Assembly: GCA_963806535.1 (NCBI GenBank)
Contig: CAWDYC010000004.1
Coordinates: 256,001 to 320,000 of the forward strand
Direction of reading: 5' to 3'
DNA from: Candidatus Bathyarchaeota archaeon
Lineage (GTDB): Archaea > Thermoproteota > Bathyarchaeia > Bathyarchaeales > Bathycorpusculaceae
Length of the DNA: 64,000 nucleotides
Positions 10,610-59,425 of this stretch are shown here, in pieces. Under the pieces are notes generated by a model. The model was not told where the DNA came from. It saw nothing but the letters and a program-made list of their open reading frames with translations, and made no database searches. A program made the translations under genes and the position numbers. Positions within the stretch are counted from its first letter, which is position 1, and every line of letters starts with the position of its first letter.

Positions 10610-12245
10610 TTGATTTCATGGAAATATACATTTAAACGATTAAATGAAGAATACGATATCGCTAAACGAAAAAAGCAAGCGTTAGATAACCTTTTTGAAA
10701 CCGGCAAAATTTCGCAGTCAACACGCGATTCTTTTAACGGCGAAATCAATGCAGCAATAGCCACAATCGAAAAACAGCAAAAAGAATTAATTGACAGCAT
10801 GGCAGGAAAAACTCAGGAACTGGAAAACCAAATAAAAATGTTAGAAACACTTCTTGCTAACTATGAGATTCAGCATGTCGTAGGCGAAATTGACGAGGAC
10901 ATCTACCAAAGAGAAATAAGCCTACTTACAACAGGGCTAGAAACAACCAAAAACGAGCTAAACACAATAAAACAAGTCACAAACCAACTTTCTCCAACAG
11001 CCCCAGCAATCCAAGCGCCAGCCGCTCCAGAACCAGCAGCCCCAATTGTCGAAGCTGAAATTGCACAACCAGTAATAGCAGAACCAACACCTGTAGAAGC
11101 TCCAGTTGAAGCCGCTCCAATTGAAACTGTAGTAGAACCAGCTCCAATTGAAACTGCTCCAGCTGAGATTCCAATTGAAACTGTAAAAGCAGAAGCGACT
11201 CCAGCGGAAAGCGCTCCAATAGAAACAGCGCCCGTAGAACCAGCGCCAGTAGAAACTGTTCAAGCGCCAATCGAAGCTGCTCCAGTTGAAACAGCGCCAA
11301 TAGAAGCCGCTCCAATTGTTGAAGCCCCAGTTGAAGTTACGCCAGTTGAAACCCCAATTATAGAAACAGTTCCCGTCGAAGCCCCGCCAGCAGAGACAAT
11401 CGCTCCAGTTGAAACAACCCCTGTTGCTGAAGCTGCCCCCATTGAGATGCCAACAGTCGAAGTAGCTCAAATTGAAGCTCCCATAATCGAAGCTGCTCCG
11501 GTTGAGACTCCAACGGTCGAAGCGACCCCAATAGAAGCCCCACCGATTGAAGTTCCAGTTGAAGCTGCACCAGTTGAAACCTCAATTATCGAGACAGCGC
11601 CAGTCGAAGCTACCTCGGTTGAGACAACTCCCGTTGTTGAAGCTACACCAATTGAAGCTCCAATCCTCGAAGTTGCCCCAATTGAAGCTCCTGTTGAATC
11701 TCCAACTGTTGAAGTCGCTCCAACAGAAACCGCTCCAATCGAAGCTGTTCCAGCTGAAGAAGCTCCAATCGCTCCCCCAGAACCAGAAGTCCAAATAATA
11801 AATGAACCAACACCTGAAATTGCTCCTCAAGAACCAGCAGTAACTGAGCCAGCGCCACAAGAACCAATCATAAATATGGAAGCAGCTCCAGTTGAACCAG
11901 CTCCAATAGTAGAGCAGCCATAGTAATTGAGCAGCCAATCGTTGAAGCAGCAAACATTACGCCAACTGAAGTAATTGCTGAGCCAACAACAAGAGCAGCC
12001 AACAGTTGAAGAAGTTCCACTTCAAGATTTTGAAGTTACCGAACCAGTTCAAATTGAAACTACCCTTGAAAAAGTAATGGATCCAACAATAGAAACCATC
12101 TACTCCAGTCATAGTCGAGGAGGCTATAATTCCAGCCCACCCTATGGAAGCGCCCCACGTGGCGCAGACGGAAATGGTAGCAAACGCAGAAGCCGCAACA
12201 ACCGCAACAGAAACAGAAGACTCCAGTGAAGAAAAATCTGAATAA
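10610..12245 (+). CDS. CdvA-like coiled-coil protein with long acidic Pro/Ala/Glu tail (indels after 11920)
   Basis: ~120-aa coiled coil (ALDNLFETGKISQST, IQHVVGEIDED) followed by E-A-A-P-I/V repeats; acidic frame resumes to TAA 12243-12245. Confidence 0.7.
11000..11960 (+). repeat. Degenerate 15-nt coding tandem repeat (GAAGCTGCTCCAATT-like)
   Basis: Pentapeptide periodicity EAAPI/ETAPV/EATPI. Confidence 0.85.
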
Positions 12246-19179: not shown

Positions 19180-19233
19180 ATTTTTCGTAAAGCTAAAATA
19201 AAAGTAGTATGTTTTGATTATTCTAATAAGGTA

Positions 19234-19326
19234 ATTCGGGGAGCTGGGAAATTGACCTGGCTGAGAGGGCAACTGTTTGTTGCCGACCCAATGAACCTGA
19301 ACCAGGTAATACTGGCGGAGGGAAAA
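19234..19326 (+). promoter_or_regulatory. TPP (THI-box) riboswitch
   Basis: Conserved elements in order: GGGGAGC, GCTGAGAG, GACCC, GAACCTGA, CCAG-GTAATA-CTGG, GCGGAGGGAA; upstream of a thiamine-related operon. Confidence 0.93.
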
Positions 19327-19329
19327 GAC

Positions 19330-19875
19330 GTGAACATAAATCTAATAAATAAAACAGACAAAAAACAATTTTCTCAGACAAAAAGAGTAGCGTTAACAGG
19401 AGTTATGGCAGCGTTAATTGCTGTTACAACTATTATTGCCATACCTTTGCCGCCCCCGCTCTCAACCATTAATCTCGCGCCTGTAATAATATTCGTAGTT
19501 TGCATTCTCCTTGGACCAATTTTTGGCTTAACCTCAACTGTTATCGGATGTGGCATTGGATACTTGGCTGGAACAAGCCTTGGGACAATAATTGTTCCCC
19601 CCGGATTTCTATACATATACTTGGTTGGTTTAGTCGTTGCCAGAGGTCCAATGGCTTTAGCTGTAGGTGCTTTAAGAAAGAAAAGTGAAATAACAGGGAT
19701 GGTTCTCGGCGTCATTATTGAAACGGCTATTTTCTTTAGCATCGATTTTGTCTTATTTGGGCTTGGATTCGCTGTGTTTGACTTGGGGACTCTTGTTGAT
19801 TTAGTCTTCGTACCGATAACGGTAGCAGTTCTCATTGCTGTAAGAAGAATTTTAGATACCAAGTATCTATCATAG
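19330..19875 (+). CDS. ECF transporter S-component (probable thiamine/precursor uptake)
   Basis: ALTGVMAALIAV, INLAP, LGP motifs and about six TM segments; GTG start 8 nt after GGAGG. Confidence 0.8.
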   Translation: MNINLINKTDKKQFSQTKRVALTGVMAALIAVTTIIAIPLPPPLSTINLAPVIIFVVCILLGPIFGLTSTVIGCGIGYLAGTSLGTIIVPPGFLYIYLVGLVVARGPMALAVGALRKKSEITGMVLGVIIETAIFFSIDFVLFGLGFAVFDLGTLVDLVFVPITVAVLIAVRRILDTKYLS

Positions 19876-30325: not shown

Positions 30326-31126
30326 TTGCTTGCCCAAATAATCATAACAATAATTCTCGGTTTAATCCAGGGATTAGCTGAATGGCTACCTATTTCCAGC
30401 ACCGCTCACCTGCGAATAGCTGAGCATTTTCTGGGGTTCTCCGCGACACCGCTTTTCAATGTGTTTTTGCACATAGGCACACTTGGGGTTGTTATTTTCT
30501 ATTTCAGGCATGACATCAAAGTCATACTTACCGCGTTGGTGCACAGGGACTTCCACAGCGAGTACGGGAGATTCATTCCTCTAATCGTAGTTGCAACAAT
30601 CCCGACTGGCATAATAGGGGTACTCTACGACTTTTACATCGGCGACACCTATCAAACAATCCTAATAATCGGCATAACTTTCCTGATTGGCGCCGCGCTT
30701 TTGTTCTCATCAAAGTTTGGCAAAGAAAACCAAACCCAAATCTCGTACCGCCAAGCACTCGTCATGGGTGCAGCTCAAGGGGCCGCCAGTTTTCCAGGAC
30801 TTTCAAGAAGCGGCTCAACAATATCAAGCGGGCTTTTGCAAGGTGTAAAGCGGGAAATGGTTTTCAAATTCTCCTTTTTGCTTTCTATTCCAGCCATAAT
30901 TGGCGATTTAGGTGTCGAGGCTTATCATCAACGAGGTACTTTTTCACAGGGTGTTGGCGTTAGTCCTCTGAATCTTTTAGTGGGCTTGATTTTTGCCGTG
31001 ATTGCCGGATATTTTGCCATAGTGCTTGTGAAAAAACTGGTACTAACCAAGAGGTTCCATTACTTTGCCGCATACACGTTTGCCCTTGGAATGGCCCTAA
31101 TAATTTTAACCATATTAGGATTTTAG
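30326..31126 (+). CDS. uppP: Undecaprenyl-diphosphate phosphatase (BacA)
   Basis: QGLAEWLPISSTAH and PGLSRSGST motifs. Confidence 0.93.
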   Translation: MLAQIIITIILGLIQGLAEWLPISSTAHLRIAEHFLGFSATPLFNVFLHIGTLGVVIFYFRHDIKVILTALVHRDFHSEYGRFIPLIVVATIPTGIIGVLYDFYIGDTYQTILIIGITFLIGAALLFSSKFGKENQTQISYRQALVMGAAQGAASFPGLSRSGSTISSGLLQGVKREMVFKFSFLLSIPAIIGDLGVEAYHQRGTFSQGVGVSPLNLLVGLIFAVIAGYFAIVLVKKLVLTKRFHYFAAYTFALGMALIILTILGF

Positions 31127-31190
31127 CGTTTCATGCGTTAATCCTTTAAGCAAATTTTTCAACAAAACTTAGAACCTAGTTTTAGCAAGC

Positions 31191-31338
31191 AGAAGAAGAA
31201 GAAGAAGTGTGCCCCTGCAGGTTTTCTTCTTCTTTTAAAAGCAGAGAAGAAGTAGGATGTGCTATTTCCAGCCGTCCTTCTTATTCTATCAGAGAAAAAC
31301 AACACCCAGTGCTAACACCAACCGTTGTTGTTCTACTA
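31191..31338 (-). repeat. Three-hairpin dispersed non-coding element, copy 1
   Basis: About 90% identical (manual alignment) to the reverse complement of 59281-59425; strand inferred from G-U pairs and a GAAA loop. Confidence 0.9.
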
Positions 31339-34333: not shown

Positions 34334-34448
34334 AATCTTTCGCCTTACTAAGGCTTGGAAGCTTGGTTTTGGATATAAGAATTTGTGATTGCAGACTAAC
34401 AGTCATAACAGATAATTGGCGGTCTTTTTCACAAATCAGATTTGGTTA

Positions 34449-34508
34449 TGGTGATGAGGGTAGGATTCGAACCTGCGAACCCCCGAGGGAAAGGATATTT
34501 CATTCAGG
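34449..34508 (-). repeat. Degenerate copy of the tRNA-Leu 3' part (att relic 1)
   Basis: tggtgatgagggtaggattcgaacctgcgaacccccgagggaaaggat resembles 35412-35459 and extends into the intron. Confidence 0.85.
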
Positions 34509-34520
34509 TGCTAAAGTCAA

Positions 34521-34745
34521 CTATAATCGAAATTCTTTTTCACCAATTTCGAGTTGCTTTTCCAACGTTTCTTTGTAACGGTCTACTTGGTCTTCTTTAA
34601 GGTCATCTTGGCTTACATTTAAAGCCCTCAATAGTTCTTTGTCGCTTAGGTTTACCAGGGTTTCAGCAAGTTTATCGACGAGTTTACGAATTTCTAAGAG
34701 CTCCAAAGCTATGATTTTGAGGTCTCTCTTATCCTCCTCTGTCAA
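34521..34745 (-). CDS. Small antitoxin-like hypothetical protein
   Basis: LAETLVNLSDKELLRAL resembles Phd/RelB-type C-termini; lies between att relics. Confidence 0.5.
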   Translation of the reverse strand: MTEEDKRDLKIIALELLEIRKLVDKLAETLVNLSDKELLRALNVSQDDLKEDQVDRYKETLEKQLEIGEKEFRL

Positions 34746-34839
34746 GACTGTTCTAGCCAACCAAGTCACCGAATAAAGGTTACCCATTTAAGGGTGCTAA
34801 GATGTATTAAAAATTTCACTTCACAAGGACTAATGTAGT

Positions 34840-34870
34840 TGGTGGTGAGGGCAGGATTTGAACCTGCGAA
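34840..34870 (-). repeat. Degenerate copy of the tRNA-Leu 3' end (att relic 2)
   Basis: tggtggtgagggcaggatttgaacctgcgaa versus tggtgctgagggcaggattcgaacctgcgaa. Confidence 0.85.
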
Positions 34871-34873
34871 ACT

Positions 34874-35126
34874 TTATTCGTAGATTGATTTCGTAAGCCA
34901 ACATCCACGAACACTAAATTGCCTTCTTTTTCATCTAAAGAATAGATTACACGGTACTTACCAATGCGCCATCTCCATAAACCTATCAACTCCCCCTGTA
35001 ATCGTGTTCCAGCATAAGGGTCACCAGCAGCTTTTTCAAGTCCTTTCAGAACTTGTTCTTTCCCAGTTTTCGGAAGCTTTTCAAACTGCTATTGAAATTG
35101 TGTAAGAAAATGAGCTTATAGGGCAA
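34874..35126 (-). CDS. RelE/ParE family toxin (indels; absent from the ORF track)
   Basis: MPYKL...DPYAGTRLQGELIGLWRWRIGKYRVIY...VGLR..IYE. Confidence 0.82.
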
Positions 35127-35131
35127 ATTTT

Positions 35132-35341
35132 TTAGTCCTTCAAAAGAGCTTCTCTTATTTCCTCAGGAATAGAAACGGTAATGTATTCTTTTTTCTTATA
35201 TTCTTCAAGCCTTTTCTCTATTCTTTCTAACCCCTCTTTGTCAGAAAGCTCTTCAAGGGAAGCTAGAATTTCTTCTATCCTGTCAAAATGTTCATAGAGT
35301 TCTTTAAGCAAAGGCAACGGAACTGGAACAGTTTGTGTCAT
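35132..35341 (-). CDS. Putative antitoxin
   Basis: Small acidic protein (ILASLEELSDKE) directly upstream of the RelE gene. Confidence 0.65.
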   Translation of the reverse strand: MTQTVPVPLPLLKELYEHFDRIEEILASLEELSDKEGLERIEKRLEEYKKKEYITVSIPEEIREALLKD

Positions 35342-35411
35342 CCAAAGGCTCTCGCACAATAAATTATGCACTCAAGTAATTAATGTTGTTTCCGAAGCTT
35401 GAGAAAGTTTA

Positions 35412-35561
35412 TGGTGCTGAGGGCAGGATTCGAACCTGCGAACCCCTGCGGGAAAGGATTTCCCATCAGGCCTTTGCCGGCCAAATGTTAGATCTTGAGT
35501 CCTTAGTGGAACACGCTCGCAGCATATTCTTTCACCTTTGACCTGGCTTGGTTACCTCAGC
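35412..35561 (-). tRNA. tRNA-Leu(CAA) with two introns (35503-35530 at 28/29; 35460-35493 at 37/38)
   Basis: Acceptor GCTGAGG/CCTCAGC-ACCA; spliced anticodon arm AAGGA-CTCAAGA-TCCTT; long variable arm; BHB motifs at both introns. Confidence 0.92.
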
Positions 35562-50126: not shown

Positions 50127-51693
50127 GTGAAACTTAAGAGCGATATAATCGTTTTTGCTGTTTTGGCGCTGCTACTTTCTTGTTCTTTATCTTCAGGAAT
50201 TTCTCTAGGAACAGTGAAAGGCGCTACTCAAAACAACAATTTGCAGTCCAATAACGGTGCAATATCGCTGACTAATGGATCCGCTCCGGATGATTGGCCA
50301 ATGTTTCGTCATGACCTGCAGAATACAGGGGCTTCTACGTCAACACCCCCAATCAACAAATTGCTATGGCAATTTTCCACTGGTGATTTAATTTATTCAT
50401 CTCCTGTAGTCGCAAACGGTGTTGTTTACATCGGGTCAAACAATAGCTACTTTTATGCTCTAAATGCTTCGAGTGGTTCTTTAATTTGGCAAAGTTACGT
50501 GGGCAGTAATGTTGAATCATCTGCTGCTGTTGTTGATAATATTGTTTACGTTGGAATCTTATGGAACGGACACAATGGTTACGTGGATGCTTTGAATGCC
50601 ACAACTGGCTCGATAATTTGGCGATTTGCAACAAATAGCGGTATCGAGTCATCTCCCGCTGTAGTCGACGGTGTTGTTTACGTTGGTTCATACAACGGCT
50701 ATATTTACGCGCTAAATGCGACCACTGGTTTGTTAAGATGGTCGTTCCTTACTGGCGGCTCAACATATTCTTCTCCTGCAATCGTAAATGGCATTGTATA
50801 CGTAGGTTCAATCGACGGCAGAGTTTACGCCTTGAACGCAAATAACGGAGCGCAAATTTGGTACTTTCAAACAGGAAATCCTGTCTATTCATCTCCAACG
50901 ATTGTAAACAACGTCGTGTACGTTAACTCAGATAACGGAACAGTATATGCTTTGAATGCAAATGATGGCTCGAAAATTTGGCAAGCAACTATAGGCGTAG
51001 GTGACCATGCGGACGATTCGCCCGCTGTTGCTGGCGGCATTGTATACTTTGGCGCACGCAACGGCTATTATGCCTTCAACGTTACTGATGGATCGCAGAT
51101 TTGGTTCTTTACCTCGCCTTATTCGTCGCGTCAATTCACTGGCTACGTATATTCGTCCCCTGCAGTTGCGGGCAATGTTGTATATTATGGGTCATTTGAT
51201 GGCTACGTTTTCGCTTTAGATGCTTTCAATGGTTCCATGATCTGGTCATATCGTACTGGAGGATATCTTGTTTTCGTCACCTGCAGTTGTCAACGGCATT
51301 GTTTACATAGGCTCATTTGACGGAAAAGTTTATGCTTTGGGGAATTGGGCTTCGCTATTTCAAACGTCGATTCCGACCCCAACTCCTACTCCTCAAGCAA
51401 CCGCAACTCCCACAACAACTCCGACCCCAACGCTCACACCAACAGCAATACTTGTTCTCGCTAACACTTCTAAACCAATCGCAACTCCAATAATCACACA
51501 AATGCCTCAGCTCTCCCCGACGCCCATTCAAGATCCAATTCCAATAGCCACATCTGAACCGAAAGGAGAACTCATGCTCGGTGTTACTCAAAACGAAAGC
51601 GACTTCACGAGTTGGATAATATTGGGAGGAATTATCGGAACTGCTGTGGTAGCGCTGATATTCTTTATGCTAGTTTTCAGAAGAAGACCGTAA
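50127..51693 (+). CDS. Secreted PQQ-like beta-propeller protein with Pro/Thr linker and C-terminal TM anchor (frameshift ~51268)
   Basis: Signal peptide, WPMFRHD, repeated SSPAVVNGIVYVGS.DG.VYALNA, PT repeats, TM plus RRRP. Confidence 0.88.
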
Positions 51694-59280: not shown

Positions 59281-59425
59281 TAGAAGAACAACACAGTTGG
59301 TGTTAGCACTGGGTGTTGTTCTTCTTTGATAGAAGAAGAAGGACGGCTGGAAATAGCACCGTCCTACTTCTTCTCTGCTTCAGAAAGAAGAAGAAACCTG
59401 ATAGGGGCACACTTCTTCTTCTTTT
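59281..59425 (+). repeat. Three-hairpin dispersed non-coding element, copy 2
   Basis: Stems AGAAGAACAACAC/GTGTTGTTCTTCT, AGAAGAAG-A-AGGACGG/CCGTCCT-A-CTTCTTCT, AAAGAAGAAGAA/TTCTTCTTCTTT. Confidence 0.9.

Follow-up and report, generated by a model that had tools for sequence, protein, structure and literature searches.

Much work has been done on small palindromic interspersed repeats in bacteria, and little on those of archaea. Among the archaeal ones, the PATEs of haloarchaea derive from IS200-IS605 insertion sequences (IS); they are non-coding, bear hairpins, leave no target-site duplication (TSD) and have end hairpins in common with resident IS200/IS605 elements. Tandem hairpins with a repeated short motif are also found in the sponge small RNAs CsrB and RsmZ, which are single-locus genes with a promoter and a terminator. 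Repetitive extragenic palindromic (REP) sequences have units of 20-40 bp, a GTAG/CGTC end tag and an association with REP-associated tyrosine transposases (RAYTs), as given in the available text of PMC3733652, and their copy number is usually >100 per genome (PMC2817692, available text). BOX elements (boxA-boxB(n)-boxC in Streptococcus pneumoniae, BOX-type in S. suis) are composites of modules, typically <200 bp long, in the available text of PMC3049150. Here we describe a repeat found in a 64,000-nt stretch (the window) of a Candidatus Bathyarchaeota archaeon genome (assembly GCA_963806535.1, contig CAWDYC010000004.1, positions 256,001 to 320,000), in which a first-pass annotation, made from the sequence alone, had noticed a three-hairpin element in two inverted copies. 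Both stretches probably belong to a family of non-coding palindromic interspersed repeats that is modular, confined to one genus and similar in behaviour to REPs and bacterial interspersed mosaic elements (BIMEs) or to BOX elements. A copy consists of one, two or three hairpin modules in a row, which are paralogous to one another and have conserved arms and variable apices. On the best reading, some agent spreads the family, or homogenises its copies, at the level of DNA.

Copy 1 occupies 31191..31338 of the window on the minus strand, between uppP/bacA and a catalase gene, and scores 175.4 bits with the covariance model (CM) described below. It folds into three modules, all read on the minus strand. 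Hairpin 1 (31293..31334; nhmmer C4:287335-287291) has GAACAACAAC / GTTGTTGTTC arms and the apex TTGGTG-TTAG-CACTGG. Hairpin 2 (31245..31287; C4:287288-287244) has GAA/TTC arms, an inner GGACG/CATCC stem and the apex GCTGGAAATAGCA, and hairpin 3 (31191..31236; C4:287236-287196) has AAAGAAGAAGAA / TTCTTCTTCTT arms, the apex CCTGCAGGGGCACA and a (CTT)n tail. Copy 2 (59281..59425, plus strand, 161 bits) lies between a 118-aa open reading frame (ORF) on the NucS side and a pyruvoyl arginine decarboxylase gene; it adjoins the latter, and NucS is farther away. The minimum-free-energy structure of copy 2 contains hairpins 1, 2 and 3 at 59282..59325, 59331..59374 and 59383..59425 of the plus strand, respectively (nhmmer C4:315283-315326, C4:315330-315375 and C4:315383-315424). 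The hairpin units measure 40-48 nt and have GAA-type 5' arms and TTC-type 3' arms.

A repeat search found the two copies to be mutual reverse complements, with one arm pair of 67 nt at 94% identity (31259-31325/59293-59359) and a second, adjoining pair of 62 nt at 87% (31196-31257/59362-59423). In blastn against the 2.95-Mb assembly, copy 1 matched copy 2 over 144 nt at 90% identity (E 2.3e-48). In the pairwise alignment the similarity ended at the element borders, and the flanks could not be aligned. Folded as RNA, copy 2 forms three consecutive hairpins at -65.3 kcal/mol (z -6.4), a value equalled by 0 of 200 shuffles; its complement reaches -60.8 kcal/mol (z -8.2). Copy 1 folded as single-stranded DNA (ssDNA) gives z of -4.9 and -3.5 for the two strands. 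Pfam identified the neighbours of copy 1 as BacA/UppP (PF02673, 1.3e-66) and catalase (PF00199, 1e-200). These results bear out the first-pass description of an inverted pair of about 145 nt at about 90% identity with unrelated flanks, of three hairpins with GAA 5' and TTC 3' arms in each copy, of uppP and katA beside copy 1, of GCAC on the 3' side of all three apices, and of the lack of both a shared reading frame and a TSD. The observation is real and far beyond chance. The further claim that the apices are better conserved than the linkers holds roughly for this pair of copies but not for the family, in which the arms are conserved and the apices are species-specific.

A coding reading of the element was rejected; copies of 144-150 nt differ in length by non-multiples of three. 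The GAA/TTC tracts are free of stop codons because of their composition. Short contigs from three metagenomic DNA runs yielded flanks of other copies, no empty alleles and one length variant, an extra AGA unit at 31190 in a contig (run X2) that is otherwise mismatch-free over 31120-31267. Here either the (GAA)n arm or the (CTT)n tail is polymorphic in length.

The first-pass annotation counted two copies, a number that proved far too low. blastn of copy 2 against its own genome (G000) returned 19 loci over 7 contigs. nhmmer searches with a profile for each hairpin placed hairpin 1 at 16, hairpin 2 at 16 and hairpin 3 at 13 loci, with a union of 20 loci. Canonical three-hairpin copies occur at 9 of these 20; the remaining copies consist of hairpins 1+2, hairpins 2+3 or hairpin 3 alone. 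A lax regular expression for GAA-arm hairpins gave 175 matches, 33 of them in known loci, and the others are mostly noise with a few degenerate extra copies. Of the 19 loci from blastn, 18 are intergenic, with long ORFs on either side; the other is a copy with hairpin 3 alone. Among the 18 intergenic loci, 6 lie between divergent, 4 between convergent and 8 between tandem genes, and in the tandem settings the element is antisense in 5 and sense in 3. The orientation antisense to the flanking genes that had been read from the two window copies is not general; orientation is mixed among the other copies of the genome. Within +/-25 kb of the copies in this genome, element orientation showed no pattern with GC skew, AT skew or coding strand. 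On contig C12 (1.08 Mb) of the congener G105, copies at 125k, 264k and 330k are on the minus strand and those at 605k, 620k, 743k, 827k and 882k on the plus strand. This could be an orientation switch along the contig; G000 has no such pattern.

The genes next to the copies in G000 are unrelated housekeeping genes, including those for a methyltransferase, ribosomal protein L22, an ECF transporter, Hjc, an ABC ATPase, a nitroreductase, QueC, a DHH/DHHA1-domain protein, aIF5B, CbiZ and a glycogen debranching enzyme, among others, and have no common function. No transposase adjoins any copy among the annotated neighbour genes. Recurrent clusters of neighbour genes over 69 loci were discarded as spurious frames across the GAA/TTC repeat or as orthologous housekeeping genes (B12 radical SAM, diphthamide synthase, AsnC regulators and family B DNA polymerase). 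Proximity to tRNA genes was likewise dropped: 5 of 39 scanned loci of this genome and its congeners have a tRNA within 1.5 kb, two of them orthologous, and the rough expectation is already about 2-3. Two other features of the genome lie beside hairpin copies. A second dispersed repeat of about 75-86 nt, with a T-tract followed by ACCTA..TAGGT and TATATAC..GTATATA palindromes, has 6 copies (L016:1402-1476, which is G000 C3:153414-153488; C5:37040; C4:572031; C7:336145; C7:254725; C11:89312). One of them is directly upstream of a hairpin-element copy, an arrangement found equally in G013 (L032:1401-1475). At G000 C6:44700-46700 (L012/L015), a 2-kb AT-rich stretch (34.6% GC) ends at a hairpin-element copy; all its open frames are <=94 aa, and it has no repeats elsewhere in the genome.

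The modular build of the family was examined in a model-guided alignment of 61 forward copies from 10 genomes, which is the set meant wherever 61 copies are mentioned. The hairpins are paralogous; in many copies the hairpin 2 apex is TGGTGGTAGCACCG, identical to the hairpin 1 apex. Single modules come and go. In the G013 positional orthologue of the copy at C4:153k, hairpins 1 and 2 are present and precisely hairpin 3 is missing, and at L094 the module order is 3-1-2. Modules are mostly co-oriented, with head-to-head composites at L094, L095, L102 and L103. Flipped apices were read off the alignment in 7 of the 61 copies, for hairpin 1 in L095, L102 and L103, for hairpin 2 in L052 and for hairpin 3 in L038, L040 and L092; a crude regular-expression check recovers 5 of the 7. 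L095 (G112), L102 (G105), L109 (G127) and L124 (G101) occupy the same site beside an orthologous AsnC-type regulator. There the hairpin 1 apex is flipped in L095 and L102, unflipped in L109 and deleted in L124, so the flip took place in situ. At the copy-2 site, G112 and G105 carry the element in the orientation seen here, and the G049 copy is inverted as a whole, with only hairpins 2+1 left. The borders of the element are fuzzy, and the (CTT)n tail varies in length.

Copies of G127, G101 and G009 (L108-L125, L031-L038) share a 3' part of about 45 nt, roughly 1-50 nt beyond hairpin 3, with a TTTGGAGTTAACTGATTAGCTTTCAAGTATTGAAG-like sequence. It holds a small TTCAA/TTGAA hairpin, and the G000 copies are without it. 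A hammerhead ribozyme was considered from a CTGATGAG-like string in this extension of some G127 and G009 copies and was rejected; most copies have CTGATTAG, and Rfam found no ribozyme.

Searches for further copies, which the first-pass annotation had proposed, were extended beyond this genome with a CM (R1) built from 10 of its own copies. At E<=0.01 the model had matches in 66 of the 120 genus genomes. Since at most 26 candidates were scored per genome, the counts (up to 25 per genome) are minimum values. Copies of full length, with all three hairpins, are present in G112, G105, G049, G127, G101, G009 and G013. In a CM search of 151 genomes of the order (E<=1e-6), only two weak matches (46 and 39 bits) fell outside the genus, in 2 of the 6 genomes of the sister genus g21, and none of 116 genomes of other families of the order was matched. 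BLASTN found no match in 16 genomes of other genera. A 24-nt core of hairpin 1 has 15 exact sites among 185,579 species genomes, all in entries titled 'Candidatus Bathyarchaeota archaeon', and no exact match in IMG/VR viral contigs. The weaker CM matches in congeners and g21 are two-hairpin elements with GAACAACAAC/GTTGTTGTTC and AAAGAAGAAGAAG/CTTCTTCTTCTT arms and species-specific loops; judged by their sequences, they are true relatives. Family-wide, the conserved part is the arms (GAACAACAAC/GTTGTTGTTC and GAAGAAGAAG/CTTCTTCTTC), which are kept across the genus and its sister genus, and the apices are variable.

Comparison with related genomes showed that copies are gained, persist and are homogenised. 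In G013, the closest species (coding identity 87-89%), neither window site holds the element. Between uppP and katA the spacer measures 317 nt in this genome, against about 62 nt in G013 and about 40 nt in the nearest metagenomic relative, whose UppP is 95% identical in amino acids. By the length of unaligned spacers, it is 226-275 nt shorter in 7 syntenic congeners (G013 and six more). Of 80 metagenomic UppP loci, not one has the element. At copy 2 the spacer measures 383 nt in this genome and 59 nt in G013. Other copies are shared: 3 of 5 G013 loci examined are at sites where G000 too has a copy, and 6 of 7 fetched G112 copies have positional partners among 9 fetched G105 copies. Many copies are old. 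Positional partners in G112 and G105 are 0.75-0.84 identical. The 100 nt of intergenic DNA beside them show similar values and the coding flanks do at least as well, so there is no sign of constraint above the surroundings. In G000, the nearest neighbour of every core copy (9 of 9) is a paralogue from the same genome (81-94%). Identity to the positional orthologues is 0.60, 0.62 and 0.43, with coding flanks at 0.74-0.84. That the paralogues are closer than the positional orthologues suggests that the copies were amplified, overwritten or converted towards a genome-specific master sequence.

These data suggest how the repeat may change. Neighbouring GAA/TTC arms are direct repeats of each other and partner arms are inverted repeats, an arrangement that makes loss or duplication of modules, flips and changes in tail length likely. 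Whole modules would be lost or duplicated by slippage or unequal recombination between the direct repeats of neighbouring arms, and an apex might be turned round when the two inverted arms of its hairpin recombine or allow template switching. The (CTT)n tail would change in length in the manner of a microsatellite. Spread and homogenisation might come about by gene conversion among dispersed copies or through a trans-acting enzyme that recognises the hairpins. Effects on neighbour genes are likely incidental. The first-pass annotation had offered a structured non-coding RNA and a REP/BIME-like ssDNA hairpin element as alternatives, and the latter is nearer the mark. The repeats are dispersed, intergenic, modular, prone to flips, gained in particular lineages and homogenised, but they have no RAYT, no end tag and a low copy number. 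Involvement of ssDNA is only a candidate feature.

Several observations weigh against the interpretation as DNA-level interspersed repeats. No mobilising enzyme or mechanism was identified among the neighbour genes or, genome-wide, among Y1 transposase genes, the only class sought on that scale. The extra DNA at the window sites (about 255-275 nt between uppP and katA and about 320 nt at copy 2) is longer than the 148-nt element, and the remainder is unique. Because it exceeds the element by 110-180 nt of unique sequence, no insertion junction could be read, and direct insertion of the element alone is at most a candidate event. The comparison with empty sites proposed in the first-pass annotation shows the sites to be empty in G013, and no clean empty-versus-filled junction was found in G013, the 7 syntenic congeners or the 80 metagenomic loci. 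About 20 loci, or up to 25 matches per congener as a lower bound, is low for REP-like repeats. Many copies are kept at orthologous sites across species, as a functional element would also be. In an alignment that was fitted to the model, and of which 7 rows are reverse or overlapping, 92% of cells retain stem pairing, with more double changes than in shuffled and slid controls. At the base of the hairpin 1 apex, two T-G wobbles are conserved on one strand (UG in 54 and 48 of 68 rows). The kept pairing and the one-strand wobbles could reflect selection on a single-stranded fold, RNA included.

Among the other explanations, the repeats may be served by a dedicated hairpin-recognising protein of Bathyarchaeota, as a RAYT-independent counterpart of REPINs or as a multi-copy RNA family bound through its stems and RGCAC bulges. 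Such a protein would fit the GAACAACAAC/GTTGTTGTTC and GAAGAAGAAG/CTTCTTCTTC arms being kept while the loops are species-specific, and the homogenisation and flipping of the copies in the absence of a tracking Y1/RAYT gene. We consider this unlikely.

A second explanation is that the copies encode multi-copy structured small RNAs, each presenting RGCAC on three hairpins; such RNAs would act as a sponge or docking site for a protein and be made from the strand with the G-U pairs. The strong folds, the kept pairing with its excess of double changes, the RGCAC motif in most apices and the retention of copies at orthologous sites are in agreement with it. So are the one-stranded hairpin 1 wobbles and the counts among Watson-Crick-consensus pairs of the 61 copies, where G-T (117) exceeds A-C (72) on the strand preferred by the first-pass annotation, again in the model-fitted alignment. 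However, palindromic DNA retains pairing without any RNA. The strand signal is weak. In copy 1, hairpin 2 has a C-A mismatch on the proposed strand and G-U on the opposite one, and C-A is found on the proposed strand in most copies of this genome. The GNRA loop of hairpin 2, a GAAA with a closing G-U pair, had also been used as a strand argument; among the aligned family it is confined to the copies of this genome. An Rfam scan gave no match at the gathering score over the element in the window, at the 19 loci of this genome or at 20 congener loci; the best sub-threshold match reached 19.2 bits against a cut-off of 176, and a permissive scan stayed at chance level. No promoter-like signal is conserved in position in the flanks, the 40 nt upstream included; positions -7 to -3 are just mildly rich in T. 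Furthermore, orientation to genes is mixed and 6 of the 18 intergenic copies are in divergent promoter regions, the flips in 7 of 61 copies would shift the motif to the other side and strand, and the apices are species-specific while the arms are conserved. The structured RNA, sponge or guide-array reading of the first-pass annotation is without positive support, and we regard a small-RNA family as unlikely.

It is likewise unlikely that the elements are cis-acting sites of the host, in DNA or RNA, such as platforms that bind a regulatory or chromatin protein, stops for transcription from both sides, or stabilisers of mRNA ends of the kind proposed for REPs. The intergenic placement (18 of 19 loci), the long persistence at the same sites in several species, the arms conserved over the genus and sister genus and the T-rich 3' arms are consistent with such a role. 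Against it, the neighbour genes have no common function, the element is no more conserved than the adjoining intergenic DNA, both window sites are empty in the closest species, and the CM matches 66 of the 120 genus genomes. Nor is the element a 3'-end signal, since it is as often between divergent as between convergent genes.

The REP/REPIN system proper, in which ssDNA hairpins are processed by a Y1 HUH transposase (a RAYT, or a resident IS200 TnpA acting in trans), appears very improbable here. Over all boundary offsets, no offset pair gave a direct repeat of >=4 bp in more than 3 of the 61 copies. This lack of a TSD is as expected for Y1 transposition, and the hairpin 1 loop is GTAG in most congeners. 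The genome does carry Y1 genes (PF01797), only in three IS200-like copies. This element is 552 bp long, encodes only a 144-aa Y1 transposase and is present at L127:1358-1909 (G000 C4:112474-113025) and on C3 and C8, at 99.6-100% identity; one copy lies about 680 nt from the hairpin copy at C4:111775. Its end hairpins, CCTGCCGC-GTTA-GCGGCAGG and CTCGCCTC-GGAA-GAGGCGAG, are GC-rich and unrelated to the GAA/TTC hairpins. A co-occurring HUH/RAYT gene, suggested as a check in the first-pass annotation, showed no link with the element across the 120 genus genomes. Y1 genes are present in 7 of 21 element-rich genomes (>=10 CM matches or best E<=1e-9) versus 39 of 120 overall; the grouping is post hoc and related genomes are not independent, so this comparison shows just the lack of a sign of a link. 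No Y1 gene was found at E<=1e-5 in G105 and G049 (97% complete; 22 and 24 CM matches), and the genomes richest in Y1 genes, G002, G095 and G016 (7-10 each), are outside the 66 CM-matched genomes. There is no conserved GTAG or CGTC end tag in the 61 copies, GTAG preceding hairpin 1 in only 11 of them, and the orientation shows no bias with GC skew or coding strand.

Finally, a classical MITE (miniature inverted-repeat transposable element), that is, a deletion derivative of a DDE-type IS moved by its transposase through terminal inverted repeats (TIRs), is highly improbable: the element is small, AT-rich and intergenic, and its outermost arms (AGAAGAAC... / ...CTTCTTCT), inverted-complementary by construction, could act as TIRs, but there is no consistent TSD of >=4 bp at any boundary offset, the borders are fuzzy and the (CTT)n tail variable, no transposase adjoins any copy (the genome was not screened for DDE IS with matching ends), and the coming and going of single internal modules is not explained by a TIR-defined unit.

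Set beside the described systems, the interspersed repeats reported here resemble REP, BIME and REPIN sequences as extragenic palindromic stem-loop units (18 of 19 loci intergenic, three hairpins per copy) that may form mosaics with units in either orientation, are mostly inherited vertically, are homogeneous within a genome and have no TSD. They differ in unit length (40-48 nt rather than the 20-40 bp given in the available text of PMC3733652), in copy number (about 20 loci rather than the usual >100 in that of PMC2817692), in having no conserved GTAG/CGTC end tag of the kind PMC3733652 describes in its available text, in having no RAYT, let alone a single-copy one flanked by repeats, and no co-occurrence with Y1 genes, and in their purine/pyrimidine-asymmetric GAA/TTC arms and archaeal host. 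With BOX elements they have in common short modules that vary in number and presence, predicted stem-loops, an intergenic location, a typical size of <200 bp and, in the available text of PMC3049150, no mention of a dedicated transposase. Variable modules are seen here in the 1+2, 2+3, 3-only and 3-1-2 copies and in the 3' extension of G127, G101 and G009. The modules of the present family are instead paralogous hairpins with common arms that flip in place, in an archaeal host and in fewer copies, and the relation to BOX is claimed as one of analogy only, with no sequence relation expected. Like the MITEs in the available text of PMC11602168, the elements are small, non-coding, AT-rich, intergenic, multi-copy, highly base-paired and taxon-specific; unlike them, they have no TSD, no defined TIR boundary and no parent IS among the elements recognised, and their internal modules vary independently. 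The family is archaeal, non-coding, hairpin-bearing and free of TSDs like the PATEs, but its hairpins are not shared with the ends of the resident IS200-like element. Its tandem hairpins, each with a short motif (here RGCAC), recall CsrB and RsmZ, but they are found at about 20 loci in both orientations and with flipping modules.

Some other features of the window were recorded. At 34446-35560 (minus strand), the 3' half of a tRNA (T-arm, acceptor and CCA) occurs three times (35466-35409, 34894-34837 and 34503-34446) after an apparent intron-bearing tRNA gene, with small ORF cassettes between the copies. The pattern looks like that of serial integration at a tRNA gene. Rfam and ARAGORN both called no tRNA in this interval. 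A TPP riboswitch aptamer lies at 19227-19340 (plus strand) with 62.9 bits against a gathering score of 54.3. Long degenerate direct repeats with a 15-nt period, rich in GAA/GCT/CCA codons, at 11044-11791 (families D1, D4 and D6) are likely a low-complexity (P/A/E/V/I) coding repeat, and seven diverged repeats of about 120 nt at 50394-51311 (D2/D3) are probably the blades of a beta-propeller-like repeat protein.

Since the high copy number, end tag and RAYT of REPs and the TSD of MITEs were not found, we file the family as a new one of small palindromic interspersed repeats, under no named family. Among the papers retrieved on Bathyarchaeota or Bathyarchaeia with MITE, REP or interspersed repeats, none treats such repeats in its available text. 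The string 'Bathyarchae' is absent from the main text of the MITE census PMC11602168, whose supplementary lists may hold the family unnamed. For this archaeal group the family is the first of its kind to be described, and as a category it is not new. Such repeats can break or confuse metagenome assemblies and predictions of non-coding RNA, and they mark differences between strains and species of abundant sediment archaea. With the persistence, homogenisation and shuffling typical of REP-like behaviour but no RAYT, the family could help to ask how such repeats are maintained.

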